Source of the DNA: Cupriavidus necator
Lineage (GTDB): Bacteria > Pseudomonadota > Gammaproteobacteria > Burkholderiales > Burkholderiaceae
Direction: 5' to 3'
DNA length: 32,000 bases
Assembly (NCBI RefSeq): GCF_016127575.1
Contig: NZ_CP066019.1
Span: 2,850,001-2,882,000 of the forward strand
The notes beneath the pieces were generated by a model. The model searched no databases. It was given only the letters and a program-made list of their open reading frames with translations, and was not told the origin of the DNA. The translations under genes were made by a program, and so were the position numbers. Positions 1-27,193 of the stretch are shown here, one piece after another; the first letter of the stretch is position 1, and each line of letters begins with the position of its first letter.

Positions 1-2214
1 AGCGTCGCCCAGATGCAGGGCCCGGCGGCCTTCGACGCAGGCCTGCTCAAGAGCCGCGCCGTGGTCGGTCCGGTGGTGGAGCGGCTGCGGCTCGATATCA
101 CCGCGCAGCCGCTGCGTGCGCCGCTGCTGGGCGCGCTGGTCCAGCGCTTTTCCACACCCGGCCAGCCGCGCGGCACCTGGCCTGCCAGCCTGGGCTATGC
201 CTGGGGCGGCGAGCGTCTGGTAATCGCCAGCATGACCGTGCCCGAGGCGCTGGTAGACCAGCCACTCACCTTCGAGGTGCGCAGCGACGGCCGCTACCGC
301 CTGATGCAGCAGGACACCTTGCTGCTGGAAGGGCGGGCCGGCGAGACTGCGATGGCCAACGGCATTGTGCTGCGCGTGGACAAGATCGAGGCCGGGCCCG
401 GTACGCGCTTCCAGCTCACGCGGCACGACCTGGCCCGCACCGCCGAGTCCGTGCGCCGCGGGCTCACGGTGGAAAGCGAACGCAGTGAAACCCCGGCGAG
501 CCTGGGCGGCGCGGCCGACCCCCTGACCGCGCCGGGCGGCACCGTGCGCGTGAGCTGGCAATACCCGGACCGCCAGCTTGCCGCCCAACTCGTCAACGGG
601 GTCACGCGCGCCTATATCGACGGCCAGACCGACAAGCGCCGCCAGGACGCGGCCGGCACGCTCGCGTTCCTCTCGGGCGAGCTGCCGCGCGTGCAGAGCG
701 AACTCACGCGCGCCGAAGAGGCGCTCACGCGCTACCGCGCGCGCACGGGTTCGCTGCAGCCCAGCCGCGACGCGCAGTCGTTCCTCAGCAACAGCATGGA
801 GTACCAGCGCCAGATCGCAGCGCTCAAGCTTGAGCGCACGCGGCTGCTCCAGCGCTTCACGCCCGAGGCCAACGAGGTCCGCACCGTCGACAGCCAGATC
901 CAGCAGATGACTCGCGAGCGCGCGGAGATCGACGCGCGTATGCAGACCCTGTCGGCCTCCGAGCGCGAATCGGTGGCGCTCACGCGTGACGTCAAGGTGG
1001 CCGAGGACATGTACATGTCCTTGCGCAGCAAGGTCGAGCAGCTGTCGCTGATGCTGTCCGACAGCTCTACCCAGATGCGCGTGGTCGATGCCGCGATCGC
1101 GCCGGTCACACCGGTCGGTCTCGGCGCGTGGCCGTTCGCCTCCGCCGGCGCCTTGCTCGGCCTGTGCCTGGGCGTGGCCGCGATCAACCTGCGCCAGCGC
1201 ATGCGCCCGTCGGTGGCCAGCGCCGCCGATGCGGAACAGCGCCTGGGCATGGCCATGCTGGGCGATATCGCCTTCAGCAACGAGCAGACCGAGCTGGAAC
1301 GGCTGGTCGAAGCCAAGCGCCGCCTGGGCATCGCTTCCGGCTTTGTGCTGCCGCCCAATGTGCGCCTCGGCCGGCCGGAGTCTGTCACCAGCGTGATCGA
1401 CGCCGCCACGGCCGCCGCGCCCGAGGACGAACGCGCGCGCGCCGAACGGCTGCTGCGCCAGGGCCTGCACGACCAGTTCCTGCTGGCGCGGCGCGCCCCG
1501 CATTCGCTTGCCGTGGAAGGCCTGCGCACGCTGCGGGCGGCGCTGCATTTCGCGTTGCGCGATGCACCCAACTGCGTGGTTGCGGTGACCAGCCCCGCCG
1601 CCAGCGCCGGCAAGACCTTCGCCGCGGTTAACCTCGCGGTGCTGTTCGCCGAAGCCGGCCAGCGCGTGCTGCTGGTCGACGCCGACCTGCGCCGCGGCCG
1701 CGTGGCGGACTGGTTCGACCTGCCTGCCGAGCCCGGGCTGGCAGAAGTGCTCGCTGGCCGCAGCGCGATCGCCGAAGCGGTCAAGCCGAGCGTGGTCAAT
1801 GGCCTGTTCCTGCTCAGCCGCGGCGCGGTGCCGGCCAATCCGTCCGAGCTGCTGATGCTGCCCGCGCTGGCGGAATCCCTGCGGCTGTGCGCGGGGCGCT
1901 TCGACCTGGTGCTGGTGGACACGCCGCCGGTGATGGCGGTGGCCGATGCCACGCTGGTGGCCAACTTGGCGGGTTCCACGCTGGTGGTGGTGCGCGCCGA
2001 TGTCACGGCGACGGCGCAGGTCGATGAAACCCTCAAGCGCCTGGCGCACGCCAATGCCAGGCTGGCCGGTGGCATCCTCAACGGTGTCATGCCCCGGCGC
2101 AGCAACCGGGCGGACTTCAATACCATCAATCCTTATCTGGGGATGCCGTTGCCACGAGCGGTAGCGAAGCCTCCCGCATTGGCCGGTCAAGCCGATCGGG
2201 TAGGGAAAAACTGA
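1..2214 (+). CDS. Polysaccharide co-polymerase / BY-type tyrosine autokinase family protein (Wzc/EpsB-like, paralog 1). 5' end cut by window edge; atypical C-terminus.
   Basis: The frame is open from nt 1 (ORF track 13..2214). LLKSRAVVGPVVERLRLDI aligns with LLRSRMVVGKAVDDLRLYI, roughly 100 residues into the other two Wzc-like proteins here, so the N-terminus is missing. Long coiled-coil periplasmic region, second TM (GAWPFASAGALLGLCLGVAAI), and a P-loop domain with Walker A SPAASAGKT, Walker A' VLLVDADLRRG and Walker B DLVLVDTPP. The last ~45 aa contain a single Tyr. Confidence 0.9.
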   Translation, partial: SVAQMQGPAAFDAGLLKSRAVVGPVVERLRLDITAQPLRAPLLGALVQRFSTPGQPRGTWPASLGYAWGGERLVIASMTVPEALVDQPLTFEVRSDGRYRLMQQDTLLLEGRAGETAMANGIVLRVDKIEAGPGTRFQLTRHDLARTAESVRRGLTVESERSETPASLGGAADPLTAPGGTVRVSWQYPDRQLAAQLVNGVTRAYIDGQTDKRRQDAAGTLAFLSGELPRVQSELTRAEEALTRYRARTGSLQPSRDAQSFLSNSMEYQRQIAALKLERTRLLQRFTPEANEVRTVDSQIQQMTRERAEIDARMQTLSASERESVALTRDVKVAEDMYMSLRSKVEQLSLMLSDSSTQMRVVDAAIAPVTPVGLGAWPFASAGALLGLCLGVAAINLRQRMRPSVASAADAEQRLGMAMLGDIAFSNEQTELERLVEAKRRLGIASGFVLPPNVRLGRPESVTSVIDAATAAAPEDERARAERLLRQGLHDQFLLARRAPHSLAVEGLRTLRAALHFALRDAPNCVVAVTSPAASAGKTFAAVNLAVLFAEAGQRVLLVDADLRRGRVADWFDLPAEPGLAEVLAGRSAIAEAVKPSVVNGLFLLSRGAVPANPSELLMLPALAESLRLCAGRFDLVLVDTPPVMAVADATLVANLAGSTLVVVRADVTATAQVDETLKRLAHANARLAGGILNGVMPRRSNRADFNTINPYLGMPLPRAVAKPPALAGQADRVGKN

Positions 2215-2387: not shown

Positions 2388-2639
2388 ATGCGAGCAGCGA
2401 TACGCACCATACTTTTGGAAGTGGCCCGACTTGACGTACCAGTTGAATCGCTGGACGACCAGGCCGATCTATACGAAGCGGGACTGTCATCACTGGCAAC
2501 GGTGCAAGTCATGCTCGCGATCGAAAATACCTTCGGCATCGAGATACCTGACCGCATGCTGACTCGCCAGCTGTTCCGCAGCATCAGCACACTGGCTGCG
2601 GCGACCGAGCAGATCAAACAAGAGCAGGAGGCGGCATGA
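2388..2639 (+). CDS. Acyl/aminoacyl carrier protein (phosphopantetheine-binding, ACP-like), 83 aa
   Basis: Small acidic protein with a carrier-protein helix II motif, LYEAGLSSLATVQVMLAIENTFGIEIP (Ser in GLSSL is the putative 4'-PP site). ATG at 2388 is preceded by GGAG at 2378-2381; the track start at 2364 is a TTG. Its stop overlaps the next start (ATGA at 2636-2639). Confidence 0.8.
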   Translation: MRAAIRTILLEVARLDVPVESLDDQADLYEAGLSSLATVQVMLAIENTFGIEIPDRMLTRQLFRSISTLAAATEQIKQEQEAA

Positions 2640-3835
2640 GCCCGGTCCTCGCCAGCGTCGAGCAGGCCTTTCCGCGCGCAGAGACTGCTGACGCCGCACA
2701 CTTGCTGGCCGGAGCGCGCCTGGCCGCGGCAGAAGCAGCCAGGCATGCAGACCAGGTCGACGCCGATGCGTGTTTTCCGCACCAGGCGTTTGCAGTCTTG
2801 CGTGAGCAGAGGTTGCTGGGCGCCATGGTGCCGCCAGCCTGTGGCGGTGATGGCGCGTCGCTGGAAACGATCGCAGCGGTCTGCCGCGTGCTGGGCGGTG
2901 CCTGTGCCTCGACGGGAATGATCTACGCCATGCACCAGATACAGGTGGCATGCCTGGTCAATCATGCGAGCACCAGCTCGTGGCACGCGCAGCTATTGCA
3001 GCGCCTGGCCAGCGAACAATTGCTGCTGGCTTCGGCCACGTCCGAAGAGGCGATTGGCGGTGCCCTGCGCAGCAGCGGCTGCGCGGTCAACGCCGATGGC
3101 GGCAACCTGTACTTGCTCAAGATGGCTCCGACCATTTCCTATGGCGCCCATGCCGACGGGATCCTCGTCACGGCACGCCGCCATCCCGATGCCTCGCCAT
3201 CGGACCAGGTCATGGTAAGCGTGCTCAAGCCAGACTACGTACTGGAAAGTCTCTCCACCTGGGATACCCTGGGCATGCGCGGCACCTGCAGCAATGGATT
3301 CCGGCTGGAAGCCCGCGGGCATACCAATCAGATCCTGCCCGTGTCGTTCGGCGAGATTGCCGACGTCACCATGACCCCCGTGTCGCACATCTTGTGGTCT
3401 GCCTTGTGGACCGGTATCGCCGCGGATGCGGTTCAGCGCGCCAAGGTGCTGTTCCAGGGCCAGGCGCGCGCCCGGCCTGGCACGCTTCCGCCCTCGGCTA
3501 CGCGCGTGGCCGAAGCGGTTGCCATTATCCAGATGCTGGAGGGGCGGCTGGAACTGGCGTTGGCTCACCAACGCCAGCGTCATGCAAGCCAGAGTGTGTC
3601 GGCAATTTTCAACCTGGCGGCGGAAATGAACGGGCTCAAGACCAGCGTGTCGTCGCTGGCGCTCGAAGCGGTGCAAATCGCGATGCTGGTCTGCGGCATG
3701 GCGGGCTACAAGCATGGCACGCCGTTCAGCCTGGGACGCCACCTGCGGGATCTGTGGTCCGCCCCCTTGATGATCAACAACGATCGCATATTGACCAATA
3801 CCGCCAATCTGCTACTGGCGGACCGGTCCGCCTGA
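2636..3835 (+). CDS. Acyl-CoA dehydrogenase-fold flavoprotein, probably acting on a carrier-protein-bound substrate
   Basis: 399 aa. ACAD-like middle-domain motif WDTLGMRGTCSNGFRLE and a C-terminal helical domain ending GRHLRDLWSAPLMINNDRI (the counterpart of the RDa..i.eGt region). AGGAGG lies 6 nt upstream of the ATG. Translationally coupled to the carrier protein gene. Confidence 0.85.
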   Translation: MSPVLASVEQAFPRAETADAAHLLAGARLAAAEAARHADQVDADACFPHQAFAVLREQRLLGAMVPPACGGDGASLETIAAVCRVLGGACASTGMIYAMHQIQVACLVNHASTSSWHAQLLQRLASEQLLLASATSEEAIGGALRSSGCAVNADGGNLYLLKMAPTISYGAHADGILVTARRHPDASPSDQVMVSVLKPDYVLESLSTWDTLGMRGTCSNGFRLEARGHTNQILPVSFGEIADVTMTPVSHILWSALWTGIAADAVQRAKVLFQGQARARPGTLPPSATRVAEAVAIIQMLEGRLELALAHQRQRHASQSVSAIFNLAAEMNGLKTSVSSLALEAVQIAMLVCGMAGYKHGTPFSLGRHLRDLWSAPLMINNDRILTNTANLLLADRSA

Positions 3836-3845: not shown

Positions 3846-4850
3846 ATGGACGATACCAGCAACGCTTACGTGCCAGGCGACGACGCATCCGTTGCCCCGG
3901 GTGACCATTCTGCCATGGCCAGGCCGGCGCAGGATCCTGACACGGGCCGCCGTGCTTACCGGCAGGCGCTGATTGACGCCCGCGTGCTCTTTCCCTCGAC
4001 GGTCGATGGCATTTATGGCCGTAGCGGACTGTTCGAGAGTATTGCCGACGGCTTGAACTACGCCGTCAGCAAACTGGGCGCCGACCAGGACGCGGAGGTG
4101 ATGCGATTTCCTCCTGCCATGCCGCGCAAGGATTTCGAAGCGAGCGAGTATCTCAAGGGCTTTCCCCAACTGGCAGGGACGGTGCATTGCTTCTGTGGCG
4201 GCGATCGCGAACATCATCGACTCCTGGCGCGCCTGGAGCGCGGTGAGGAATGGGCCGATCAGCAGCAGCCCACCGATGTGGTGCTGGCGCCCGCGGCGTG
4301 CTATCCCGTCTACCCTGTGGTGGCCAGCCGCGGTCCGATGCCTCGGGAAGGGCTGGTGGTTGACGTGTTGACGTATTGCTTCCGTCATGAACCTTCGATC
4401 GACCCTGCACGCATGCAGATGTTCCGCCAGCGCGAATATGTCCGGCTCGGCACGGCCGAGCAGATCGTGGAATTCCGTCAACGTTGGATGGAACGTGGCA
4501 CGCAACTGGCCAGCCTGCTTGGCTTGCCGCATGAGGTTGACGTGGCGAACGATCCGTTCTTTGGGCGTGGCGGCAAGATCGTGGCCGACAGCCAGCGCGA
4601 GCTCAAGCTGAAGTTCGAGTTGCTGGTGCCGATCAATGATGGCGCGCCGCCCACGGCTTGCATGAGTTTCAACTACCACATGGACCATTTCGCGCACGCA
4701 TGGCCGTTGCGTACCGCGGACGGCGCGCCGGCGCACACCGGCTGCGTGGGCTTTGGCATCGAGCGCCTGACGCTGGCCTTGCTGCGTCACCACGGCTTCA
4801 AGCCGGCGAACTGGCCCCAGCGGGTGCGTGACGTGCTCGGAGGCATCTGA
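3846..4850 (+). CDS. Amino acid--[carrier protein] ligase: truncated SerRS-like class II aminoacyl-tRNA synthetase homolog without a tRNA-binding arm
   Basis: 334 aa. Class II aaRS motif 2 (YCFRHEPSIDPARMQMFRQREYVRLG) and motif 3 (GCVGFGIERLTLALLRHHG). The Cys in APAACYPVY could serve as an active-site Zn ligand as in methanogen-type SerRS. About 100 aa shorter than a bacterial SerRS, with no N-terminal coiled coil. GAGGAG RBS, 10 nt after the ACAD stop. Confidence 0.8.
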   Translation: MDDTSNAYVPGDDASVAPGDHSAMARPAQDPDTGRRAYRQALIDARVLFPSTVDGIYGRSGLFESIADGLNYAVSKLGADQDAEVMRFPPAMPRKDFEASEYLKGFPQLAGTVHCFCGGDREHHRLLARLERGEEWADQQQPTDVVLAPAACYPVYPVVASRGPMPREGLVVDVLTYCFRHEPSIDPARMQMFRQREYVRLGTAEQIVEFRQRWMERGTQLASLLGLPHEVDVANDPFFGRGGKIVADSQRELKLKFELLVPINDGAPPTACMSFNYHMDHFAHAWPLRTADGAPAHTGCVGFGIERLTLALLRHHGFKPANWPQRVRDVLGGI

Positions 4851-5031
4851 GACGGAGCGGCATTGAGACGTGAGCAGATGCCGCATCCATTCGGCCCATG
4901 CAGATGCAGTGCCGACCGATGCGCCTGGTGGTCCGCCCTGCATCGAACTTCTGCAGCCGCCCGGAGCAGCGAGGCATGCTCCGCGTGGCCAGCGTTCCAG
5001 CACGGGCAGGCTGTCACGGGAGAGGCAGTCC

Positions 5032-7599
5032 ATGAAGTCGCAAACTTATCCTGACACAAGCATTCTTGCGTCCGGTCAGCAAGCACTCCCCGGCGGCCGC
5101 CCGGGCGTTGCCATCGGCAGTACCGCGCTCGGCGGCGAGTGGACATGGGTGCAGACACCCGCCGGCGCGGCCGAAAGCCCCGCTGCATTGGATCCTGCCG
5201 CAGGCTGGCTGCCGGCCCCAGTGCCCGGCACGGTGGCCAGCGCGCTGCGCGCCGCCGGGCGATGGGACGACGCAATGCCGCCGCCATTGCACCAGTATGA
5301 CCATTGGTATCGTGTGAACTTTGCCGGCCGCGGCCGGCGCGTGCTGCGCTTTAACGGGCTCGCCACGGTGGTCGAAGCCTGGCTGAACGGAAAGCTTGTG
5401 CTGAGCGCGCGGCATATGTTTGTCGCTCATGAAGTCGAGGTCGACCTGGACGGCGACAACCTGATGCACCTCTGCTTCCGTGCGCTCCATCCGTGGTTGC
5501 GCAAGCAGCGCGGCCCGGTGCGGTGGAAGCCAAGAATGATCGTGCCACCAATCCTGCGGGCGATTCGCACGACCCTGCTTGGCCACATGCCGGGCTGGTG
5601 CCCGCCGGTCCATGCGGTTGGGCCCTGGCGGCCGGTGGAACTGCTTGACCCGGCCAGTGACGACATCCTGCATGGCGTGCGCGCTGATCTGTGGGGGCGG
5701 GTGCAAGGAGATCGCGGTGTGATTGGCCTGCACCTGCACTTCCCGGCATCCGCGCCAGCGTCTGGATCGTTCGAGGCCATCGACGGCGAGGGATGCATCT
5801 ATCCGGGCTCGCTGTCGCGTACCGACAGGTTCACACTCGAAGGCACAGTCTGCGTTGAACGTCCAAAGCTCTGGTGGCCGCATACGCACGGTGAACCCCA
5901 CCTCTACCGTGTGGATGCAACCATCGAGGGACGCGCCATCCACTGCGGACGGGTTGGCTTTCGCACCATATCATTGGATTGTTCAAGCGATGCCGGGGCC
6001 TTCGCACTGCGCATCAACGGAGAGCCGCTGTTCTGCCGGGGGGCGTGCATCTCCAGCAATGATCTGCACGGCCTTGCCGACACGGATGAAGCATCCCGGC
6101 ACTGGCTGGAGCTGGCGCGCCGGGGCGGGATGAACATGGTGCGGATCAGCGGCGTCACGTGCTATCCGGGCGCGGCCTTCTACCGGATATGTGACGAACT
6201 TGGCTTGCTGGTCTGGCACGATTTCATGTTCGCCAATTTTGATTATGGCAGCATCGGACCGGGCCTCGGCCTCACCGAGGACATCACGCGCGAAGTTGGC
6301 GACTGGCTAAGCGCCACCCTAACCCATCCGAGCATTGCCGTGCTGTGTGGCGGCAGCGAGGCAGAGCAGCAGGCGGCAATGATGGGCGTCTCGCGCAGCG
6401 ACTGGAAGCAGCCACTGTTCGACGAACTGATCCGGGGCTTGGTTGCCGCCAAGCGGCCGGACGTAGTGTATGTCGGCAATTCGCCAACTGGCGGCGCGTG
6501 GCCGTTCCAGCCGGACACTGGTGTGAGTCATTACTACGGCGTTGGAGCCTACCAGCGACCGTTGGCGGATGCGCGCTTGGCGCAAGTGCGCTTTGCTTCC
6601 GAATGTCTGGCATTTGCCAATGTGCCCTGCGAGCGCACGCTGGCGGAACACGGTTTGTCGCAGCCGCTGCATTCGCCCCGCTGGAAAGCCACAATACCCC
6701 GCGACGCGGGCGCACCGTGGGATTTCGAGGATGTACGTGAGTACTACCTGCGAACCTTGTACGAAGTGGATCCACCGCGCCTACGATATGAGCAGCCGCA
6801 GCGTTACCTGGTGCTGTCCCGTGCGGTGGTCGCGGAGGTGATGACAGAAGTCTTCAGCGAATGGCGCCGGGTCGGGTCAAGCTGTGCCGGCGGACTGATC
6901 TGGCAATTGCAGGATCTCGTGCCCGGAGCCGGCTGGGGCATCGTCGATGCGTGCGGGCGGCCAAAGTCGGCCTGGCATGCCCTGCGGCAGGTCTGGCAAC
7001 CGCTGCAGGTATTGATTACCGATGAAGGGCTCAACGGACTGCACGTGCATGCGATCAACGAAACGCCGCAACCGCACGCGCTGTCGCTGACGCTGCGCTG
7101 CCTGCGCGACGGCGAGACAGTTGTGGCCGAAGCCCGGCACAGCCTGTTATTGCCGGCGCGTGGCGCGGCGCGCATTGAAGCAGCGGCGCTGCTGGACCGC
7201 TTCTTCGACTTCACCTATGCGTATCGCTTCGGCCCGCCGACGCACGATGTGGTCGTGGTCACGCTGCATGCTGCCGACAGCGGCGAGCCGCTGAGCCAGG
7301 CCGTCTACCTTCCTGACCGCCGTGCCGCCGCGCTGAAGCCCCCCGGGTTGCGAGCCAGGCTCGAGCAAGTCGACGGTGACTGGTGGCTGACGGTATCCGC
7401 GCAGCGCTTCGCACGTTGGGTTCACATCGACGATCATGCCTTTCAAGCGACCGATAACTGGTTCCATCTCGCGCCCGGCAGCAGCCGGCGTCTGCGGTTG
7501 GTGCATGAGGCGGGGAAGGCTGGCGCGCACGCTCCCGCGATTCCTTCCGGCGAGATCCACGCGGTCAATGCGGAGCATCCACTTGGCTATGATGGCTGA
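5032..7599 (+). CDS. Glycoside hydrolase family 2, beta-mannosidase-like; no signal peptide
   Basis: 855 aa from ATG 5032 (GGGAGAGG upstream); the 54-codon extension to 4870 in the track is Arg/Pro-rich. GH2 beta-mannosidase-like blocks: PKLWWPHTHGEPHLYRV, GMNMVRISGV, LLVWHDFMFAN, VLCGGSEAEQ (acid/base region) and VRFASECLAFANVP (nucleophile region). Confidence 0.8.
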   Translation: MKSQTYPDTSILASGQQALPGGRPGVAIGSTALGGEWTWVQTPAGAAESPAALDPAAGWLPAPVPGTVASALRAAGRWDDAMPPPLHQYDHWYRVNFAGRGRRVLRFNGLATVVEAWLNGKLVLSARHMFVAHEVEVDLDGDNLMHLCFRALHPWLRKQRGPVRWKPRMIVPPILRAIRTTLLGHMPGWCPPVHAVGPWRPVELLDPASDDILHGVRADLWGRVQGDRGVIGLHLHFPASAPASGSFEAIDGEGCIYPGSLSRTDRFTLEGTVCVERPKLWWPHTHGEPHLYRVDATIEGRAIHCGRVGFRTISLDCSSDAGAFALRINGEPLFCRGACISSNDLHGLADTDEASRHWLELARRGGMNMVRISGVTCYPGAAFYRICDELGLLVWHDFMFANFDYGSIGPGLGLTEDITREVGDWLSATLTHPSIAVLCGGSEAEQQAAMMGVSRSDWKQPLFDELIRGLVAAKRPDVVYVGNSPTGGAWPFQPDTGVSHYYGVGAYQRPLADARLAQVRFASECLAFANVPCERTLAEHGLSQPLHSPRWKATIPRDAGAPWDFEDVREYYLRTLYEVDPPRLRYEQPQRYLVLSRAVVAEVMTEVFSEWRRVGSSCAGGLIWQLQDLVPGAGWGIVDACGRPKSAWHALRQVWQPLQVLITDEGLNGLHVHAINETPQPHALSLTLRCLRDGETVVAEARHSLLLPARGAARIEAAALLDRFFDFTYAYRFGPPTHDVVVVTLHAADSGEPLSQAVYLPDRRAAALKPPGLRARLEQVDGDWWLTVSAQRFARWVHIDDHAFQATDNWFHLAPGSSRRLRLVHEAGKAGAHAPAIPSGEIHAVNAEHPLGYDG

Positions 7600-7679: not shown

Positions 7680-8708
7680 CTATGCGCAGACTTGGTGGGA
7701 CGTGCCGAACGCCGACAGCAAGCCCTCCATGGTCCTGTCATAGCAGGACTCCAGCGTGTCCAGGCAATCCGTGCAGGAGTCCACCCGCCGGCGCGCGACC
7801 GCTCGAGCAAGCCGGAACTGCAAGACCTTACTCTCGGTCGCAATGCTGCGTGCGGCGTCAGCCACAGCCTTGGGCGCATTGTATTTTTGCTCGCTGAGCC
7901 AGGCCAGCCAGTGGTGCAGCATTTCGAAGTTGGCGCCGAGCTGACGCGGAAAATTGAAGGAGTACAGGTGGAAATAGGCGTCGTCACGCGCCAGCAGGGT
8001 ATCCATATGCTCGCCGAACACCTGTCGCCAGCAGGCCACCGGGTTGGCTGCAGGGCGTCTGCCCAGGTGGTAGCGCAGCAGGCCGACCGAAGCGTCGACC
8101 AATGCGGATGACGCGAGCGGCGGGCGCACGCGCTTAGCGCATTCGGCATAGGGGAACAAGATGTTGCCGTTGCCGCTGAGATCAGGGAGAAGCCGCAACA
8201 GGCCGCGATAGTTCTCCTCCTGCGCGCTGTGATAGCCGAGGCCGTGGTAGTACCAGAGGCGCTGCGCCTGGCCGTCAATGCGGTCAATGGCGACGGTGGT
8301 CTTGACGTGCTCGCGCCGGTACGCCGTGGCATGCGTGTCGGGCAGATAGTAGCTGTCGGCTTCGAGCAGCACGGTGTGACCGCGTTCGACCTGGGCCATG
8401 ACGTGCGCCTGGAGCGTGTCGTAGACCGCCATTTCTTGCACAACCGTCCCGTACAGCGTCTCCAGGTCCAACTGCGGATACTTGAAGAAGGTAAAGTGAT
8501 CACCCTCAAAGTCTTGCGCCACGGTAAAAGCCAGTCCCGCGCGCGGTTCGAGACCCCAGCGGTGGAGCAGTTCGACCCACAAGTCGATGTAGCAGTTGGT
8601 TTCCTGCCAGATGGCCTCGGCGCTATGCAGCGGGTGGGGATCCGCAATCGCCGGCAGGGTGGCGCCGAATCCGCCGCCGCCCTCGCTGCGTGCTGTGCTT
8701 GCCTTCAT
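7680..8708 (-). CDS. DUF1839-like protein (possible papain-fold / BtrH-like acyl-carrier-protein-dependent transferase)
   Basis: 342 aa from ATG 8708 (GGAGGA upstream); the longer track ORF to 8906 adds a junk-like extension. From memory, the N-terminal block AIWQETNCYIDLWVELLHRWGLEP...FTVAQDFEGDHFTFFKYP matches the DUF1839 family signature. No TM segment or signal peptide. Confidence 0.6.
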   Translation of the reverse strand: MKASTARSEGGGGFGATLPAIADPHPLHSAEAIWQETNCYIDLWVELLHRWGLEPRAGLAFTVAQDFEGDHFTFFKYPQLDLETLYGTVVQEMAVYDTLQAHVMAQVERGHTVLLEADSYYLPDTHATAYRREHVKTTVAIDRIDGQAQRLWYYHGLGYHSAQEENYRGLLRLLPDLSGNGNILFPYAECAKRVRPPLASSALVDASVGLLRYHLGRRPAANPVACWRQVFGEHMDTLLARDDAYFHLYSFNFPRQLGANFEMLHHWLAWLSEQKYNAPKAVADAARSIATESKVLQFRLARAVARRRVDSCTDCLDTLESCYDRTMEGLLSAFGTSHQVCA

Positions 8709-8996: not shown

Positions 8997-10112
8997 ATGG
9001 GGCAAAAGCTATCAACAGTGCAGTCGCTGCGCGCCATCGCGGCGACGGCGGTGGTCGCCTATCATTCGGCCGCCACGATAAGGATCTTCGGGTGGACGCC
9101 CGGTGCTCTCAGCCATGCGAGCGAGTGGGGATGGAGCGGCGTCGATATTTTCTTCTTCATTTCCGGGTTTGTGATGGTGGCCACGACCTCGGGCCGGCTT
9201 CGCGGAGCGCAGGCGGCAAAGGATTTCATGGTTGCCCGGCTCATGCGAATCGCACCGATGTACTGGATTCTCACCAGCCTGATGCTGGCAGTCGTGTGGG
9301 TGGTACCGAGTCTTAAGAATTCCGAGTTCACGGCGATGCAAATTGTGACCTCCTATCTCTTTATCCCATACGAGGTCAAAGAGCACGGTAACGCCTACCC
9401 GATTCTCTATGTCGGCTGGACGCTGGTCTATGAGATGTTCTTCTATGCGGTTTTCGCCATCTCGATCTGCTTCTCGGAGCGATGCATGCGTTGGGCCTTG
9501 CCCGCCTTCTTTGCAGGGCTTTCGGTACTGTCGCTCACCAGGCCAACGCTATATATCTTCAGGTTCCTGACCTCCCCCCTGCTGCTGGAATTCGTACTCG
9601 GCTGCCTGGTCGCCTGGCTCTACAAATTCGGCTATCGGATCTCCAGGCGGGCTTCTTTCTCCCTGATCGCGGCCGGAGTTTTCGGCTTCCTTGTGCTGAC
9701 CCCCGGTTCTTCGATGGAGGACAGAGTGGTCTTTGCGGGAATCCCCGCGGCGCTGCTGGTTTCCGGGATGGTGTTCTGGGAGAGCGCCGAGGGCTGGATA
9801 GGAGGTAGCTGGTTGCAGGGCATTGGCGATTCCTCATACTCGTTATATCTGTTGCAGGCCTTCACGGTTCCGGCATTTGCCCGGCTGTTCTCCGCGATGG
9901 ACAAGCACAGGGTCTTGCCAGGCGACATTGCATGCGTGTTGTTGGTGATTGCGACGATGATGGTTTCGTTGCTTACTTATCGACTTGTCGAGAAAAGAAT
10001 TGACGCAAAACTGGGCAAGCTTCGCCAGGGTCTTCGGAGAGTTCCTGCTTCCGGTAGCGGAAGACCGGAAGAGCCGGCGGCGCGGCCGGCAGGTCGAGAC
10101 CGAGGGGTATAG
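8997..10112 (+). CDS. Acyltransferase family 3 (OafA/YrhL-type) integral membrane O-acyltransferase
   Basis: 371 aa from ATG 8997 (GGGAG upstream). Typical N-terminus LRAIAATAVVAYHS...WSGVDIFFFISGFVM and about 10 predicted TM helices. Markedly lower GC than its neighbours. Confidence 0.85.
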   Translation: MGQKLSTVQSLRAIAATAVVAYHSAATIRIFGWTPGALSHASEWGWSGVDIFFFISGFVMVATTSGRLRGAQAAKDFMVARLMRIAPMYWILTSLMLAVVWVVPSLKNSEFTAMQIVTSYLFIPYEVKEHGNAYPILYVGWTLVYEMFFYAVFAISICFSERCMRWALPAFFAGLSVLSLTRPTLYIFRFLTSPLLLEFVLGCLVAWLYKFGYRISRRASFSLIAAGVFGFLVLTPGSSMEDRVVFAGIPAALLVSGMVFWESAEGWIGGSWLQGIGDSSYSLYLLQAFTVPAFARLFSAMDKHRVLPGDIACVLLVIATMMVSLLTYRLVEKRIDAKLGKLRQGLRRVPASGSGRPEEPAARPAGRDRGV

Positions 10113-11770: not shown

Positions 11771-12439
11771 TCACTGATCACGGATCCGGCGTGCCGTAAT
11801 CTGGTAGGTACCGGCAGTGATGAACTGCCGGTCCTTGGCGTTGGCGGAGACGCCGGTGTGAGAGTCGACAACGCAATCGGCACCGATTGTCACGCCTGGG
11901 TAGAGCGTTGCACGTGTCCCCAGGAAACACCGCGGTCCGACGGTGGCGTTGCCATTGAGGACCGCGTGAGGTGACAGCACAGAGCATGCGCCCGCCCGGG
12001 AACCATGGCCGATCCCGCTGAAGACATTGGCCACCACGCCATCCTCCACCAATGCGCCCCGACTGACGACAGTGAATGGAAAGATCAGTGCACCCACGCC
12101 CAGGCGGGCGGAAGGCGAGACAAGGGCCGTGCTGTGTACATACAGCGGAACCTCGATCCCGATTTGCAAGAGCCAAGACAGTACGTCCTGCCGTGCCTGG
12201 GTGGCAGCTATCGCGACCAGCACTGCCTGGTGCGACGCGGGGCGGAACTGACGTATCGGTCCCAGATGCGGCAGATCTATGCCGTCCGGAACCTTGCCCG
12301 GCCTGTCATCGATGAAGCCCGCTACAACCGGTCCGCCGCACAATGCTTCTGCCTGCAGATAATCATAGAGTTCCACCCCGAGCCCGCCGGCGCCGGCGAT
12401 GACCACTGAAGAGACGGCAGACGCGTGAACGAGTGGCAT
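11771..12439 (-). CDS. NeuD/PglD-family sugar N/O-acetyltransferase (N-terminal Rossmann-like domain plus left-handed beta-helix)
   Basis: 222 aa from ATG 12439 (GGAGGG about 10 nt upstream); the track start at 12520 is a GTG. VVIAGAGGLGVELYDYL N-domain, then hexapeptide-repeat C-terminus (GIGHGSRAGACSVLSPHAVLNGNATVGPRCFLGTRATLYPGVTIGADCVV). Confidence 0.8.
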   Translation of the reverse strand: MPLVHASAVSSVVIAGAGGLGVELYDYLQAEALCGGPVVAGFIDDRPGKVPDGIDLPHLGPIRQFRPASHQAVLVAIAATQARQDVLSWLLQIGIEVPLYVHSTALVSPSARLGVGALIFPFTVVSRGALVEDGVVANVFSGIGHGSRAGACSVLSPHAVLNGNATVGPRCFLGTRATLYPGVTIGADCVVDSHTGVSANAKDRQFITAGTYQITARRIRDQ

Positions 12440-12535
12440 GGCTGATGGGCCCTCCGGTGAAGCCGTGTGAAAGTCGGCGGTGGTGGCGGCCGACGGCTGG
12501 GAGACAGCCGGGGACGACACCGACCGCCGCTTTAG

Positions 12536-14758
12536 CTAGGCCCGCTTGCTCTGTCCATTGCCGTATTCGGCGAGATAGCGATACTTGCCGAAGTAGTTGT
12601 GGGACCGGTACCAGCGTCCCTCGATCAGAAGGCCGTTGAAGAGCACGCCCTTGATGTCGGCGCCGGCCTGCTGGATGGCCCGTTGCGCCGCGATCAACTC
12701 GTCGGTGGTGGTCTTCTCGGCACGCGCGACGAGGAACACTACGCCAGCCTTGCTCGCCAGGATGCTCGCGTCGGCAGCGGCAAGCACTGGCGGGGTATCG
12801 ATCAGCACGAGGTCATAGCGCGATTTGAGTTGCTCAAGCAGGGAATCTATGCTGGAAGTCAGCAGCAAATCCGCCGCGTGTGGTGGTTGCGTGCCGGTCG
12901 AGATAAAGTCCAGGCCGGGCGCCACTTGCCGCTGCAAAACCTGTTCCAGCGGCGCGCCCATCAGCAGTTCGGTCAAGCCTGGCCCGCGCCTGGCATCAAA
13001 GAGGCTCTGCAGGCTGCCGCGGCGCAGGTCGGCATCGATAAGCACCACGCGGCTGCCAGCGGCGGCAATCGCGGCAAAGTTCGCGCAGACAAAGGATTTG
13101 CCGACGCCCGGGGCGGGCCCGGTGATCATCACCGTCCGACTATTGCTCCCAGCCATGGCGAAACGCAATGCCGTGCGGAAGCTGCGCAGACTCTCCACGG
13201 CCGGGTCGTCCGGCTGCTGTAGTGCCAGCAGGTTGCCGCCGGATGGCAGCTCTGACTGCTGCTTGCTGAAGGGGATGGTCGAATAGACGGTCATCCCTGT
13301 CTGCCTCTCGATCTCGTCCGCGTCGGCCACGCCGCCATCGAGCATATGGCGCATGAAGATCGCCAGCAGGCCGGCAAGCAAGCCCAGGGCCAGCGACATC
13401 CCCGCAATCATCGCCCGATCAGGCCGCACTGGTTTGAGCGGCACATCGGCCGGGTCGACAATCCTCGCGGTTCCCACTTTGCTTGCCTTGACCAGTTTCA
13501 GCTGCTGCACCTCGTTTAGCAGCGTCTGAAGCAACTCAGTGCTGACCTTGACGTCGCGCATCAGGCGAAGCACATTCTGTTCCACATCCGGCAGCTTCTG
13601 GATCCGCCCGGATACACCGTTCAGCTGGCCGTTCAGGCCGGCAATCTGGTTGTCGATGAGTGCGATCGCCGGGTGATTGGAGGTAAAGCGTGCAGCCAGC
13701 TCCTGGCGCTTCTGCTGCAATTCCTGAAGCTTGGTCTGGATCTGTACCGACTGGCCCAGGATCAGCTTGGACTCCTCGCTGAGGTCGATGGTGCCGCGTT
13801 GATTGCGCATCGCGTTATACCGGGTCTCGGCCACATCGACCTGCTGCCTGAGCAGCGGCAGTTGTCCCTCGAGAAAGGCCAGCGACTTCTCGGCTTCAGC
13901 GGCTTTGCGGCGGATGTTCTGGTCAACATAGGCGTTACCGATCTCGTTGAGGACAGCTGCCGTCATGTCCGGCGAGATTCCCTCCAGCGACACGCCGATC
14001 ACGCCGCTTTGCTTGCCACGCTCGCTGATCGCCAGCTTCTCCTGCAATCGCGTGATGGCCGCGCCGCGCGGCAGGCGACGGAGTACGAACTGGACACCGG
14101 GGCGTCCGTCGATCTGGCTGACCAGCATGGTGACCGTCCCGGTGGCCGTGCTGATCGTCAATGGCGATCCCACCTTGCCGGTAGCCTCGACATTGTCGCT
14201 GGCAAACCGCACCCTGTACGCGTCGTCACCCAGCGCGGTCAACGTGATCTTGCGTTCCTCCATGGGCGCTGGCACGTCGAGCTGGGCCACGGTGATCGAT
14301 TCATGGCCCCACGCGAAGCCGCCCCATCCAAACAGCCCCGGGTGCGACAGTTCAGGATTGAAATTGGCGATTGCCGGGCCAATCAGCGGGAAATAGCGCG
14401 GTGCGGCTTCGATATACAGACGCAGGTCGTCGACCGCCTTGCCGACTACCATCCGTGAGCGCAGGAGTTCGATCTCCGCAGAAGCCGCGGGTTTGACGTC
14501 GAAAGCCGGCGAGACGCCGGCTGCGAGCTTGCCTATCGAGTTACCGCTCGAGTCCTCCACTTGTACCGTCATGTCGGTGCGGTAGACCGGCTTTGCCAGG
14601 ATGGCGTAGATGAGACCGAGGCCGATGATGACTCCGGCGACGGACAGGAAGGTCCGTCGATAGCGGGCCAGCAAATCGAGATAGGAGGTGAGGTCCACTG
14701 CCGGCTCGCGCTCGTCCGCGCCAGCGGGGGCCTGGTATCGCGTACCGATCGGTTTCAT
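12536..14758 (-). CDS. wzc: Polysaccharide co-polymerase / tyrosine autokinase Wzc (EpsB-like), paralog 2, canonical
   Basis: 740 aa from ATG 14758, which overlaps the wzb stop (ATGA). Two TM segments flank a coiled-coil periplasmic domain. Walker A GPAPGVGKS, A' VVLIDADLRRG, B DLVLIDTPP. Tyr-rich tail: RWYRSHNYFGKYRYLAEYG. Confidence 0.95.
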   Translation of the reverse strand: MKPIGTRYQAPAGADEREPAVDLTSYLDLLARYRRTFLSVAGVIIGLGLIYAILAKPVYRTDMTVQVEDSSGNSIGKLAAGVSPAFDVKPAASAEIELLRSRMVVGKAVDDLRLYIEAAPRYFPLIGPAIANFNPELSHPGLFGWGGFAWGHESITVAQLDVPAPMEERKITLTALGDDAYRVRFASDNVEATGKVGSPLTISTATGTVTMLVSQIDGRPGVQFVLRRLPRGAAITRLQEKLAISERGKQSGVIGVSLEGISPDMTAAVLNEIGNAYVDQNIRRKAAEAEKSLAFLEGQLPLLRQQVDVAETRYNAMRNQRGTIDLSEESKLILGQSVQIQTKLQELQQKRQELAARFTSNHPAIALIDNQIAGLNGQLNGVSGRIQKLPDVEQNVLRLMRDVKVSTELLQTLLNEVQQLKLVKASKVGTARIVDPADVPLKPVRPDRAMIAGMSLALGLLAGLLAIFMRHMLDGGVADADEIERQTGMTVYSTIPFSKQQSELPSGGNLLALQQPDDPAVESLRSFRTALRFAMAGSNSRTVMITGPAPGVGKSFVCANFAAIAAAGSRVVLIDADLRRGSLQSLFDARRGPGLTELLMGAPLEQVLQRQVAPGLDFISTGTQPPHAADLLLTSSIDSLLEQLKSRYDLVLIDTPPVLAAADASILASKAGVVFLVARAEKTTTDELIAAQRAIQQAGADIKGVLFNGLLIEGRWYRSHNYFGKYRYLAEYGNGQSKRA

Positions 14759-15231
14759 GATGCCTCTCCTTGAACATGTGCGGGTGCAGCAGCAGCCCCC
14801 AGCCGTGTAGACCATGATGCGATGCCCTGCTTGATCAGTTCCAGCACGATGCCGAACATCTTCGGCGAGCATCCATACGGATCCGGCACATCCGTGTGCG
14901 TATATTCGCAAAGCCGGTGGGTTTTCCCGCGCGCGTGCGGGAAAACCCGCTCGAGCTCGTCGCGTTGCTCGCTGTCCATCACGAGGATCAGATCTGCCGC
15001 CGCCACCAGTGCGTCATCGACGGCGCGTGCGCGGTGACCGACGATATCGAACCCCTCGCGTGCAAGCAGCCTGACAGCGTTCGGATCAGCGGGGGCGCCG
15101 ACCGGCGGTGCGAGCCCGGCGGAAACCACCTCGCAAGCAGGCAGGACATGGCCCAGCAGGCAAGCCGCCATCGGGCTGCGACAGATGTTACCGATGCACA
15201 CCACCAGGATTGAGTGAACCATCTCTCGCAT
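14755..15231 (-). CDS. wzb: Low-molecular-weight protein-tyrosine phosphatase (Wzb/EpsP-like)
   Basis: 158 aa. Signature CX5R(S) P-loop (ILVVCIGNICRSPMA) and a DP loop (DVPDPYG). The start could also be the ATG at 15222. Confidence 0.95.
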   Translation of the reverse strand: MREMVHSILVVCIGNICRSPMAACLLGHVLPACEVVSAGLAPPVGAPADPNAVRLLAREGFDIVGHRARAVDDALVAAADLILVMDSEQRDELERVFPHARGKTHRLCEYTHTDVPDPYGCSPKMFGIVLELIKQGIASWSTRLGAAAAPAHVQGEAS

Positions 15232-18381: not shown

Positions 18382-19734
18382 ATGAGGCATATGACCCCGG
18401 AAGCCCTTTCCTGGCTACAGCGGATTCTGGCCGAGCGATTCGGCCATGGCTTTCACCTGCAAGCTGCTGGCGCGGACTTTGTCCACCTGTGCCTTGCTGG
18501 TTCCGGCCAGAGGTCGATTGAGATTGCCGCAGATCCCGGCACCTTCCGGCGCGCCGACTCTGAGCTCGCCTTCACGAGCTGGGACGCGCTTGCCGAGGGT
18601 TGGCAGCCGGCCCTCGGCAGTCCCTTGCCAGCGCCAGGCCTCGCGCGCGCACCGTCACCGCTGATCGAGGCGACCACTACCGGCTATCGCATCCACTATG
18701 ACGTTCTCGGTCTAAGCTACTGGATGCTGTCGCGCCAGGAGGAGGTCGGCCGCTCCGACCTCGACAGCTACGGTCGTTTCCCGGCCAGCGCGTCGCATGC
18801 CGGGAAACATGGCTATCTGGAGCGGCCGGTGGTGGACGAATGGCTGCATATCCTTGGCCAGGTGATCAGCCGGCTATGGCCCGAACTGCAGCTCAGGCAG
18901 CAGCGGGCCAGCATGAAGGTGTCGCATGACGTGGATGTGCCCAGCCGCTATGGCTTTGCCTCTGCGGCGAGAATCATCCGCCGCATGGCGGGCGACATAC
19001 TGATACGCCGGGACGTGAAAAGCGTGCTGCAGGCTCCCGTGATACGGCTTAAGACCCGGACCGCGCTGCATCCGACGGATCGGGTCAATACCTTCGACTG
19101 GATCATGGATGTTTCCGAGCGCCATGGACTGGTCAGCGCTTTCTACTTCATCTGTGGCTGTACCGACCCCAGCAAGGATGCCGACTACGAGCCCGAGCAT
19201 CCCGCCATATGTGGACTGATGCAGCGCATCCATGCCCGCGGCCACGAAATCGGCCTGCATCCGAGCTTCAATACCTATCGCGCCCCCGAAAAGCTCCAGG
19301 CGGAAGCAAAGCGGCTGCGGCGGATATGCGAGCAGGAGAATATCGAACAGGAAGCATGGGGCGGCCGCATGCATTACCTGCGCTGGGAACACCCCACCAC
19401 CATGCTTGGTTGGGAGCAGGCAGGCATGACCTACGACAGCACGCTCACCTACGCCGACCACGCCGGATTCCGCTGCGGAACCTGCTTCGAGTATCCGGCC
19501 TTCGACCCGGTCGCGGGAACGGCGCTGAACCTGCGCATCCGTCCGCTGATTGCGATGGAAGGCAGCGTCATTGGTTATATGGGGCTTGGAACCGGCGAAG
19601 CAGCCTGGAAGAAGTTCCGGGAACTGAAGGATACCTGCAAGGCGGTGAACGGCTGTTTCACGATGCTCTGGCATAACTCATCGCTCGGCAGTGCCGAAGA
19701 ACGGGATCTGTACCAGGCGGTGCTTGAGCACTGA
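18382..19734 (+). CDS. Polysaccharide deacetylase-like (CE4-fold) protein with an ~170-aa N-terminal extension
   Basis: 450 aa. MKVSHDVDVPS resembles CE4 motif 1 (metal/catalytic Asp pair), and GHEIGLHPSFNTY resembles the GHEIG.H motif 2 region. No signal peptide. The only + strand gene between two - strand operons. Confidence 0.5.
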   Translation: MRHMTPEALSWLQRILAERFGHGFHLQAAGADFVHLCLAGSGQRSIEIAADPGTFRRADSELAFTSWDALAEGWQPALGSPLPAPGLARAPSPLIEATTTGYRIHYDVLGLSYWMLSRQEEVGRSDLDSYGRFPASASHAGKHGYLERPVVDEWLHILGQVISRLWPELQLRQQRASMKVSHDVDVPSRYGFASAARIIRRMAGDILIRRDVKSVLQAPVIRLKTRTALHPTDRVNTFDWIMDVSERHGLVSAFYFICGCTDPSKDADYEPEHPAICGLMQRIHARGHEIGLHPSFNTYRAPEKLQAEAKRLRRICEQENIEQEAWGGRMHYLRWEHPTTMLGWEQAGMTYDSTLTYADHAGFRCGTCFEYPAFDPVAGTALNLRIRPLIAMEGSVIGYMGLGTGEAAWKKFRELKDTCKAVNGCFTMLWHNSSLGSAEERDLYQAVLEH

Positions 19735-26040: not shown

Positions 26041-27128
26041 ATGACATGTTGGAGAATCGCCGAACAGATGGCCTGCTGGCTCGTCATGTCGAGGTAAGGA
26101 TGCATCGGCAGGCTCAACACCTGCCGCGCCAATGCGTCGCCGATCGGCAGGCGGGCATGGGGAGTGGCCACCGCGGGCTGTCGGTTCAGCGGCAGCGGAT
26201 AGTGCACGACGGTGGGGATCCCGGCGGCCCTCAGCCGGTCCTGCAAGGTTTCGCGATCGGGCACCCGGATCGTGTACTGCGCATACACGCTGATGTTGTG
26301 TGGTTCGATATGCGGCGTGGCCTCGATTCCCCCGCGGCGGAACAGCTCTCCGTACCGCGCCGCCACTTGCTGGCGCATCGCCACCTCCTCATCGAAGATT
26401 GACAGCTTCGCCAGCAGGATGGCCGCCTGCAATGTATCCAGGCGGCTGTTCACGCCAACGCGGACATGGTGGTAGCGCCGCTCCTGGCCGTGATGGGCGA
26501 TCTGGCGTATCCGCTTGCCCAGCTCGTGGTCGTTGGTAAAGATCGCCCCGCCGTCGCCATAGCAGCCCAGCGGCTTGCTGGGAAAGAAGCTGGTACAGGC
26601 GATCGTGGACAGATTGCAGCTGCTGCGGCCTTTGTAGGAGGCGCCGAAGCTCTGCGCGGCATCCTCGATGACCGGTACGCCGTGGCGCGCGGCAATGGCA
26701 TTGATGGGGTCGAAATCGGCGCATTGGCCATACAGGCTGACCGGGACGATGGCCCTGGTGCGTGGCGTAATAGCGGCTTCAAGTGCCGCCGGGTCCAGGT
26801 TACAGGTGCGCGGATCCACGTCTACATAGATCGGCTTTGCTCCCAGCAGCGCGACGGTTTCAGCGGTGGCAATATAGGTAAAGCCCGGCATGATGACCTC
26901 ATCGCCGGCGCCGATCCCTAGCGCCATCTGGGCGATCTGCAGCGCATCCGTACCGTTGGCGCAACTGATGCAATACCTGGCGCCGGTATAGTCCGCCAGC
27001 CGCTGCTCCAGTTCCTCGACCTCCGGGCCCAGGATGTATTGACCGTGCGCCAGCACCTGCTGGATGCCGGCGTCAATCCTGTACTTGATGCGGGCTTGCT
27101 GGGTTTTGAGGTCGATGAACTCGATCAT
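26013..27128 (-). CDS. wbpE: DegT/DnrJ/EryC1-family PLP aminotransferase, WbpE-like (UDP-2-acetamido-2-deoxy-3-oxo-glucuronate aminotransferase)
   Basis: 371 aa from ATG 27128 (GAGGAG RBS). GDEVIMPGFTYIATAE, and SFFPSKPLGCYGDGGAIFTND with the PLP lysine. Operon context with wbpA/B/D-like genes. Confidence 0.85.
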   Translation of the reverse strand: MIEFIDLKTQQARIKYRIDAGIQQVLAHGQYILGPEVEELEQRLADYTGARYCISCANGTDALQIAQMALGIGAGDEVIMPGFTYIATAETVALLGAKPIYVDVDPRTCNLDPAALEAAITPRTRAIVPVSLYGQCADFDPINAIAARHGVPVIEDAAQSFGASYKGRSSCNLSTIACTSFFPSKPLGCYGDGGAIFTNDHELGKRIRQIAHHGQERRYHHVRVGVNSRLDTLQAAILLAKLSIFDEEVAMRQQVAARYGELFRRGGIEATPHIEPHNISVYAQYTIRVPDRETLQDRLRAAGIPTVVHYPLPLNRQPAVATPHARLPIGDALARQVLSLPMHPYLDMTSQQAICSAILQHVMCQPERVLP

Positions 27129-27193
27129 TGCTGATCTCCTCTGCAGACGGCATTCGGGCAAGCCTGGCCACTGTCCCAGGCACCTCAGGCACC

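Follow-up and report, generated by a model that had tools for sequence, protein, structure and literature searches.

A DUF1839 protein as the candidate off-loading transferase of an amino acid:carrier protein ligase cassette in Cupriavidus necator

A 32,000-nucleotide stretch of Cupriavidus necator DNA (contig NZ_CP066019.1, positions 2,850,001 to 2,882,000; hereafter the window) contains a cassette in which a tRNA-synthetase homologue is expected to load an amino acid on a carrier protein (CP). This raises the question of which protein takes the loaded group off the carrier and to what acceptor it is delivered. A sequence-only reading of the window had singled out a gene on the reverse strand, at 7680–8708, as encoding a candidate transferase that would deliver the carrier-bound group. 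We found that this gene encodes a DUF1839 protein of 342 residues, which is probably the off-loading enzyme of the cassette: a cytoplasmic, Cys-dependent, papain-like acyl transferase. The candidacy is supported by the fold, by the conservation of the Cys residue and by the co-occurrence of the gene with the cassette. We regard the family, fold class, residue conservation and gene linkage of the protein as established, and from these we infer its chemistry, the transferred group and the acceptor.

Several features bear out the gene itself. Its ATG at 8708 is preceded by a GGAGG Shine-Dalgarno sequence at a spacing of about 8 nt, and its GC content at third codon positions (0.80) is comparable to that of the adjoining genes. 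The public annotation of C. necator H16 chromosome 2 (AM260480.1) likewise has a DUF1839 protein of 342 residues at this place. A GTG at 8906 is a possible alternative, longer start. The sequence-only reading had assigned the protein to this family on the basis of an N-terminal block, ETNCYIDLWVELLHRWGLEP, which corresponds to residues 36–55 (window 8544–8603). The assignment was right, since residues 19–331 of the protein match positions 2–312 of the 313-position Pfam DUF1839 profile (PF08893) with an E-value of 1e-146, at 488.6 bits against a gathering cut-off of 22.5. An NCBIfam scan returned no model for the protein. This medium-sized family comprises 2854 proteins at E ≤ 1e-5 when clustered at 90% identity, and 762 representatives at 50% identity.

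The cassette lies on the forward strand. It begins with an 83-residue acyl/aminoacyl carrier protein (2388–2639; NF005480, E = 8.5e-37, 125 bits against a cut-off of 72), the presumed donor of the group. The next gene encodes a flavoenzyme of the acyl-CoA dehydrogenase (ACAD) fold (2636–3835; Acyl-CoA_dh_N, E = 9e-13), the presumed modifier of the CP-bound amino-acyl group; its best NCBIfam matches, FadE16, SfnB, DszC, HsaA and a dehydrogenase of prolyl-loaded peptidyl carrier protein (PCP), all score under their cut-offs. This is followed by the amino acid–carrier protein ligase (3846–4850; NF005479, E = 5.5e-158, 524.9 bits against a cut-off of 357). It is orthologous to Bradyrhizobium Bll0957 (PDB 4h2w/3mey, E = 1e-93 to 1e-91) and homologous to class II seryl-tRNA synthetase. 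A GH2 β-mannosidase-like protein (5029–7599) closes the cassette. It has Pfam GH2 domains, lacks a signal peptide and aligns over its full length to β-mannosidase 6bye. Both of its catalytic Glu residues are present in all 77 orthologous matches; an additional match, local and aberrant, shows Pro in place of the second Glu. As the sequence-only reading had it, the DUF1839 gene is convergent to the cassette and faces the GH2 gene, which ends at 7599.

We then investigated the neighbourhoods of DUF1839 genes in 80 loci from GTDB species representatives (10-kb flanks), which were found with an 18-member DUF1839 alignment. The ligase gene is present in 75 of these loci, the carrier protein and flavoenzyme genes in 73 each, and the GH2 gene in 71. 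The standard order is CP–flavoenzyme–ligase–DUF1839–GH2 on a single strand, with DUF1839 directly after the ligase, and it is the usual one, being found in 80 of 96 copies. The same neighbourhood, consisting of GH2, amino acid–acyl carrier protein (ACP) ligase, ACAD and ACP, is listed in the supplement of a 2023 survey (PMC10318531). All four neighbours are found in the window, where the DUF1839 gene is inverted and lies beyond GH2. The association also holds in the other direction. On PLSDB replicons, 70 records with the ligase and 65 records with DUF1839 belong to the same genera, with matching counts (ligase/DUF1839: Azospirillum 11/11, Burkholderia 10/10, Mycetohabitans 9/9, Caballeronia 7/7 and Cupriavidus 4/4). 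The near-identical genus counts, together with the locus counts for ligase and carrier protein, bear out the co-occurrence of DUF1839 with these genes.

Five loci, L026, L028, L033 and L044 in Paraburkholderia and L083 in Paracidovorax citrulli, were rejected as independent contexts for DUF1839 and are deletion relics of the same module, situated at the same place in the chromosome. All have lost the ligase gene, and the four Paraburkholderia loci have also lost the flavoenzyme and GH2 genes. A carrier protein gene or its remnant abuts DUF1839 in L026, L028 and L033, and L033 resembles a CP–DUF1839 deletion fusion. In L028, one of the relics in which the ACAD and ligase genes are deleted, the predicted nucleophile of DUF1839 (Cys39, see below) is changed to Gly, which we read as decay after uncoupling from the cassette. 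Two apparent domain fusions, P0255 (ligase–DUF1839) and P0232 (DUF1839–GH2), have frameshift-like low-complexity junctions in fragmentary assemblies and were not used.

Other observations concern further members of the module. A tandem α/β-hydrolase protein of about 600 residues with two domains is encoded within 10 kb of DUF1839 (20 kb for two loci) in 40 of 87 comparison loci (for example, L085 15403–17181, L081 2697–4559 and L087 21079–22566). It is absent from the window, and in C. campinensis its gene directly follows a convergent DUF1839 gene. In Paraburkholderia atlantica (L081 684–1247), a flavin reductase is encoded some 6 kb away from the module, and homologues are found in 10 of the 87 loci; this would be in keeping with a two-component flavin monooxygenase, and not a dehydrogenase, as the nature of the ACAD-fold enzyme. 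The window ligase has the motif HTGCVGFG near its C-terminus, with Gly where Bll0957 has Ala, two residues past the Cys of HTGCV. We take this Cys to be a zinc ligand, and the Gly/Ala position presumably may affect specificity for Gly versus Ala or Ser.

The predicted structure places the protein among papain-like enzymes. We collected 77 full-length DUF1839 members with 31–74% identity to the window protein, and the AlphaFold2 model from this alignment has a predicted local distance difference test score (pLDDT) of 92.9 and a predicted template modelling score (pTM) of 0.90. It shows an N-terminal α/β domain, followed by an all-helical C-terminal domain from about residue 200 to 334. A Foldseek search against PDB gave 18 matches at E ≤ 1e-3, all of them AziU3/U2, CtaG or CcbD (325–371 aligned columns, probability 1.00, E = 5e-8 to 6e-5, TM-scores of 0.53–0.65 by either normalisation). 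The best match is AziU3/U2 (E = 4.5e-8), a two-subunit complex of U2 and U3. The next matches, at E > 0.05, are classical papain-like proteins including GtgE, PeiR, phytochelatin synthase and calpain. Since the model matches CcbD, CtaG and AziU3/U2 over its full length, the suspected papain-fold relationship is supported, and the protein is predicted to have a papain-like fold in the two-domain architecture of BtrH, CcbD and CtaG. DUF1839 is probably a divergent branch of the carrier-protein-dependent papain-like transferases. HMMER searches against PDB sequences, with either the protein or the 77-member profile as query, gave chance matches only (a kinase and designed coiled coils). The 2023 survey independently assigns DUF1839 to the papain-like superfamily and gives it a Cys-(Thr/Ser)-His arrangement; there it forms its own group I-8 apart from the BtrH_N group I-11, and the survey's functional guess at the role of the family is ‘fatty acid/phospholipid processing’ (PMC10318531).

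The window protein does not belong to BtrH_N (PF14399) or DUF4872 by profile, with no match at E ≤ 10. The likeness of its Asn-Cys motif to BtrH-type enzymes, noted in the sequence-only reading, is corroborated by the HNC nucleophile motif of genuine BtrH_N proteins (alignment A3), and a motif (V/I)D.F(Y/F)LP...Y...H is common to DUF1839 and BtrH_N in hhalign. BtrH_N proteins are also found next to a ligase homologue elsewhere. On the Bacillus mycoides plasmid NZ_CP092834.1 (L090 4153–8621), an operon encodes a tandem pair of BtrH_N proteins together with an ACP and a remote, tRNA-synthetase-like ligase homologue. The cysteine motif of the pair is HNC or ADC, and genes for β-ketoacyl-ACP synthase III and an ACAD are nearby. 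By analogy of gene content, we take this operon to be an independent Gram-positive counterpart of the ligase/CP/off-loader pairing. In Streptomyces clavuligerus, a distant ligase homologue, without DUF1839, adjoins a condensation-domain protein of the non-ribosomal peptide synthetase (NRPS) type. In both cases DUF1839 is lacking, and a different off-loading enzyme neighbours the ligase homologue.

We next consider the putative active site. In the alignment, Cys39 is kept in 73 of the 77 members (the rest have Ser in three and Gly in one), Asn38 in 71, His134 in 75, Lys136 in 73 and His155 in 75. Position 137 is Thr in 71 members and Ser in five, and Arg302 is invariant (77/77). Among ordinary in-operon copies, Asn38 and Cys39 are each found in 70 of 70. 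The family-conserved set from N38 to R302 shows 90–100% conservation across the members, and the window protein has all of N38-C39, D42, D118, L122-P123-D124, Y130, H134, K136, T137, H155, R255, G258 and R302. The Cys to which the sequence-only reading had tied its proposal is therefore conserved in diverse members. Its codon and that of Asn38 lie at 8592–8597 on the reverse strand. In the model, Cys39, the predicted nucleophile, is the first residue of helix 39–50, and the sheet carries the other candidate catalytic residues: Thr137 stands at the start of strand 136–145, and His155 ends strand 150–155. The segment with His134, Lys136, Thr137 and His155 (8244–8309, reverse strand), which hhalign aligns to the LP..Y..H motif of BtrH_N proteins, would supply a candidate general base and orienting residues. 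The predicted isoelectric point is 4.4 for the carrier protein, and 8.1 for the C-terminal domain of DUF1839 against 5.5 for its N-terminal domain.

These features suggest a reaction sequence for an off-loading transferase. Ligases of the Bll0957 type are specific for Gly or Ala. This specificity is given in the summary table of a review (PMC9437257). By analogy with the characterised orthologues, the window ligase would use ATP to load Gly or Ala on the phosphopantetheine of the 83-residue carrier protein, and the flavoenzyme of the ACAD fold might oxidise or oxygenate this group on the carrier. DUF1839 would then receive the acidic carrier protein on its basic C-terminal helical domain and, with Cys39 at the start of helix 39–50, attack the CP thioester to give an acyl-S-enzyme. 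His155 and/or His134, placed with Thr137 and Lys136, could activate an incoming group of a glycan precursor, either an amine or, possibly, a hydroxyl, whose attack on the acyl-enzyme thioester would yield an amide or an ester.

The main alternative is that DUF1839 is a hydrolase, either a thioesterase that frees a possibly oxidised amino acid from the carrier protein or proofreads mis-loaded carrier, or an amidase/peptidase that acts on a glycan amide. The fold superfamily is classically hydrolytic, and the weaker Foldseek matches are proteases and isopeptidases. The module holds other hydrolases as well, namely GH2 with its intact catalytic Glu residues and, in 40 of 87 loci, the tandem α/β-hydrolase, and the acceptor for a transfer remains a candidate only. 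However, the full-length structural neighbours are all biosynthetic enzymes with an additional helical domain at the C-terminus, and there is no protease among them. In one of them, CtaG, an aromatic chamber keeps water out (PMC12865890). Loading at the expense of ATP followed by plain hydrolysis would also be futile, unless the product of the flavoenzyme is the goal. Finally, DUF1839 is frequently found in polysaccharide clusters (Bac_transf in 40, Wzc in 28 and Wza in 20 of the 80 loci), a setting that suits decoration better than hydrolysis. We thus regard a hydrolase as unlikely.

The paralogues of Cupriavidus bear on a second alternative. Most genomes have a single DUF1839 gene, and eight Cupriavidus loci have two. 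In these loci, the copy in the slot between the ligase and GH2 genes (L086 24744–25673, L087 28403–29332 and equivalents in L002–L006 and L076) encodes a protein with 44–45% identity to the window protein. Cys39 is replaced with Arg or Gln in seven of the eight, and other changes in these copies are Asp124Gln/His/Tyr, Lys136Arg, Thr137Ser/Ala and His247Gln. On the other hand, nine of the ten members of the convergent clade, the window protein among them, keep all 20 conserved positions examined, and the single exception has His247Gln. The Cys-less copies are intact. Their median pairwise ratio of non-synonymous to synonymous substitution rates (dN/dS) is 0.19, compared to 0.23 for the Cys-bearing copies, and on these sequence data the Cys-less paralogue is judged to be under purifying selection. 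It could serve as the pseudoenzyme half of a pair, which would recall the complex of AziU2 and AziU3. The standard slot is empty in both C. necator H16 and C. yeoncheonensis (in the window, the ligase gene ends at 4850 and the GH2 gene starts at 5029). The window gene is the only DUF1839 gene with an intact catalytic-type signature in the cluster stretch seen. This history of a degenerate in-operon copy and an intact convergent copy means that the odd orientation of the gene does not weaken its link to the cassette.

DUF1839 might act on the CP-bound substrate without delivery to a sugar, either by a cyclisation or elimination like that of AziU3/U2 or by a CtaG-like transfer to a second carrier or another protein, possibly as a heteromer with the Cys-less paralogue. 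That AziU3/U2, a complex of two subunits, is the best structural match, that the acceptor of CtaG is another carrier protein, and that the Cys-less copies have a low dN/dS are all in line with such chemistry. We nevertheless consider it distinctly unlikely, as the module has a single carrier protein gene, most genomes manage with one DUF1839 gene, and the near-invariant Cys argues for covalent acyl transfer.

A third alternative concerns the other acyltransferases of the window. The sequence-only reading had stated that none is encoded next to the cassette. This was incorrect, because an Acyl_transf_3 protein (8997–10112, divergent from the DUF1839 gene), a NeuD/PglD-type hexapeptide transferase (11771–12520) and a WbpD orthologue are all found in the window. 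One of the first two could off-load the carrier protein, with DUF1839 in an accessory role. The left-handed β-helix class includes the acyl-ACP-dependent LpxA and LpxD, to which the protein at 11771–12520 gives weak matches, and the Acyl_transf_3 gene is divergent from DUF1839 both here and in L001. However, such genes occur with the cassette in only one or two of the 80 loci, compared to 75 for the ligase (DUF1839 is present by construction), and none of the three transferases travels with the cassette in the other genomes. In addition, the NeuD/PglD and Acyl_transf_3 families normally use acetyl-CoA, and we judge this explanation very unlikely. It is hardly credible that the DUF1839 gene is unrelated to the cassette and convergent to it by coincidence: it does lie on the opposite strand with the GH2 gene between it and the ligase, but this reading is contradicted by the comparative data, in which the ligase co-occurs in 75 of 80 loci, mostly adjoining on the same strand, the genus distributions on plasmids and chromids match, and the paralogue history accounts for the convergent position.

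With off-loading by DUF1839 as the preferred reading, we then looked for a possible acceptor in the window. The remaining genes form a polysaccharide cluster of the Wzx/Wzy type with Wza, three Wzc-like proteins, two GT4 glycosyltransferases, a flippase, a polymerase and a small phosphoglycosyl transferase. On the reverse strand, at 26013–30069, are orthologues of wbpE, wbpD, wbpB and wbpA, which encode the UDP-GlcNAc(3NAc)A pathway and are a candidate source of the acceptor sugar. The products match WbpE (PDB 3nyu, E = 4.5e-187), WlbB/WbpD (27194–27775; PDB 3mqg, E = 2.5e-96), WbpB (PDB 3oa2, E = 7.7e-170) and the WbpA-type nucleotide-sugar 6-dehydrogenase (TIGR03026, E = 2e-126). A VimE-like sugar-nucleotide deacetylase, with DUF7033 and deacetylase domains, is encoded at 18382–19734 on the forward strand and could expose an acceptor amine. 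It matches NF053580 over nearly its full length (E = 5.6e-42) with 143.8 bits, under the 440-bit cut-off, and PF23019 with E = 1.6e-29; by these scores it is a homologue rather than an equivalog of VimE. As for VimA, none of the 21 window proteins scanned with Pfam has a FemAB/GNAT-type match (short open reading frames and 30100–32000 were outside the scan).

A precedent is known from Porphyromonas gingivalis and Tannerella forsythia, whose Wbp/Vim pathway yields diamino-uronic acids that bear Ser or Gly on the 2-amino group (2-N-seryl or 2-N-glycyl), presumably placed there by VimA (PMC7468200). The window resembles this pathway in having the Wbp genes and a VimE-like gene, and the VimA step follows VimE deacetylation there. 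VimA is of the FemAB/GNAT type and has no homology to DUF1839, so the analogy is one of function and applies to this window only. By this analogy, UDP-GlcN(3NAc)A made by WbpA/B/E/D and the VimE-like deacetylase would be the acceptor, at the very amine that carries Ser or Gly in those bacteria, and DUF1839 with its cassette would perform the presumed VimA step from a carrier protein; we consider the sugar a specific, weakly supported candidate for this window. Given a complete set of WbpA/B/D/E with a VimE-like protein and no VimA homologue among the scanned proteins, the H16 polysaccharide would be expected to contain a 2,3-diamino-uronic acid that is partly deacetylated and may be re-acylated. 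The fullest form of the proposal is that DUF1839, with a rearranged Cys/Thr/His site, N-acylates UDP-GlcN(3NAc)A with a Gly- or Ala-derived, possibly flavin-oxidised group, as a thiotemplated replacement for VimA in H16, that an amino-acyl-decorated exopolysaccharide results, and that the Cys-less paralogue is a non-catalytic partner. As a whole, we rate this as rather improbable. UDP-GlcN(3NAc)A was also considered as an acceptor for the entire family and rejected. The link to Wbp and VimE is seen only in this window and is therefore not the general acceptor route of the family, and the idea is kept for the window alone.

The three Wzc-like tyrosine-kinase/co-polymerase genes lie at 13–2214 (forward), 12536–14911 (reverse) and 30542–31996 (forward). 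The first encodes the C-terminal 733 residues of an 812-residue protein, and the third runs past the end of the window. Three such genes in 32 kb suggest two or three adjoining polysaccharide loci. At 19822–21351 on the reverse strand, between the VimE-like and Wzy-like genes, a 509-residue protein with an N-terminal signal-like hydrophobic segment is encoded, for which Pfam and NCBIfam gave no match.

Several points weigh against DUF1839 as the off-loading transferase. The position that the 2023 survey equates with the canonical His is occupied by Thr or Ser, and His155 stands at the third position (PMC10318531). With Thr137 at the canonical His position, the catalytic arrangement would be unusual; hhalign alternatively pairs His134 with the conserved His of BtrH_N proteins. 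This alignment to four BtrH_N proteins has E = 4.4e-4 and a probability of 34% over 39 columns only. Apart from DUF1839 itself, BtrH_N alone recurs in the Pfam matches of the members, in 8 of 77, and its best E-value of 0.031 is sub-threshold. The top structural match, AziU3/U2, is not a transferase (PMC12865890). The proposed model offers no role for the conserved cytoplasmic GH2, whose catalytic residues are intact, nor for the tandem α/β-hydrolase encoded in 40 of 87 loci. Neither VimE-like nor Wbp genes occur within 10 kb of DUF1839 (20 kb at two loci) in the 87 loci used for comparison, and no PLSDB replicon with DUF1839 has a VimE-like gene. H16 has a second, degenerate DUF1839 paralogue (L088 20244–21029), which belongs to the same cluster and lies just beyond the window, upstream of position 1 and of Crp-like and Wzc genes. 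It carries the changes Asp124Pro, His134Cys and Lys136Pro. Its N-terminus extends past locus L088, and it is probably Cys-less, as a 74%-identical homologue has Ser at the position of Cys39. Finally, we found no experimental work on any DUF1839 protein in the literature.

The window ligase and carrier protein are orthologues of the Bll0957/Atu2573 amino acid:CP ligase systems. Seryl-tRNA synthetase homologues that charge carrier proteins instead of tRNA were reportedly described in 2010, and the work of Mocibob et al. in 2010 and 2013 is said to have characterised the loading step only. A passage of a 2022 review describes the biological purpose of this charging as unknown (PMC9437257). In a note added in proof in 2010, the Aravind group predicted that Atu2574, an open reading frame next to the ligase, forms an amide to the amino group of a cell-surface sugar (PMC2922099). 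Atu2574 adjoins Atu2573, and by this gene order it is presumably a DUF1839 protein. The core of the off-loading idea had thus already been published as a prediction (PMC2922099), and the fold was assigned in 2023 (PMC10318531). What is new here is the full-length structural link to the characterised CcbD and CtaG, whose structures date from 2022 to 2025, the two-way quantification of co-occurrence, the pair of active and degenerate paralogues that explains the gene position, the BtrH_N analogue in Bacillus and the acceptor hypothesis specific to this window. If the proposal is true, the amino acid:CP ligase pathway becomes testable from end to end, with a concrete acceptor hypothesis, in C. 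necator H16, which is well studied as a laboratory strain. The protease-like, thiotemplated, amide-forming class of BtrH, CcbD and CtaG, which has been recognised only recently, would then reach beyond Gram-positive antibiotic biosynthesis and extend, with an altered catalytic arrangement, to the decoration of surface polysaccharides in soil- and plant-associated proteobacteria.

Among the known systems, CtaG, the papain-like ligase of closthioamide biosynthesis (PDB 9quz and others), matches the DUF1839 model over its full length, with E = 6e-7 and TM-scores of up to 0.60 to the query and up to 0.65 to the target. Sequence identity is 10–12%, and CtaG differs in having a canonical Cys-His-Asp triad. 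In a ping-pong reaction, this triad, Cys11-His128-Asp144, moves the acyl group from a PCP to an amine through a covalent acyl-Cys (PMC12865890). BtrH and AsbE have the two-domain architecture of CtaG (PMC12865890). DUF1839 resembles BtrH, of butirosin biosynthesis, in this architecture, in the Asn-Cys nucleophile motif and in the local (V/I)D.F(Y/F)LP...Y...H motif. CcbD/LmbD (PDB 7yn1, 7yn2 and 9dkr), the condensation enzyme of lincosamide biosynthesis, is a further full-length structural match (Foldseek E = 6e-6 to 6.5e-5, 353–371 columns), although sequence identity is 12–14% and HMMER gives no match. The triad of CcbD is a canonical Cys-His-Glu; in DUF1839, Thr stands where the canonical His would be, and His134 and His155 are both conserved. 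CcbD takes its group from the carrier protein of an NRPS-type system in the secondary metabolism of Streptomyces, while the presumed carrier protein of DUF1839 is loaded by a tRNA-synthetase homologue and the genes lie in proteobacterial polysaccharide loci. CcbD grips its carrier protein via Arg residues of its C-terminal helices and condenses prolyl-S-CP with the amine of an amino sugar by a ping-pong mechanism (PMC12945683). This reaction, from a CP-bound amino-acyl group to an amino-sugar amine, is of the type that we propose for DUF1839.

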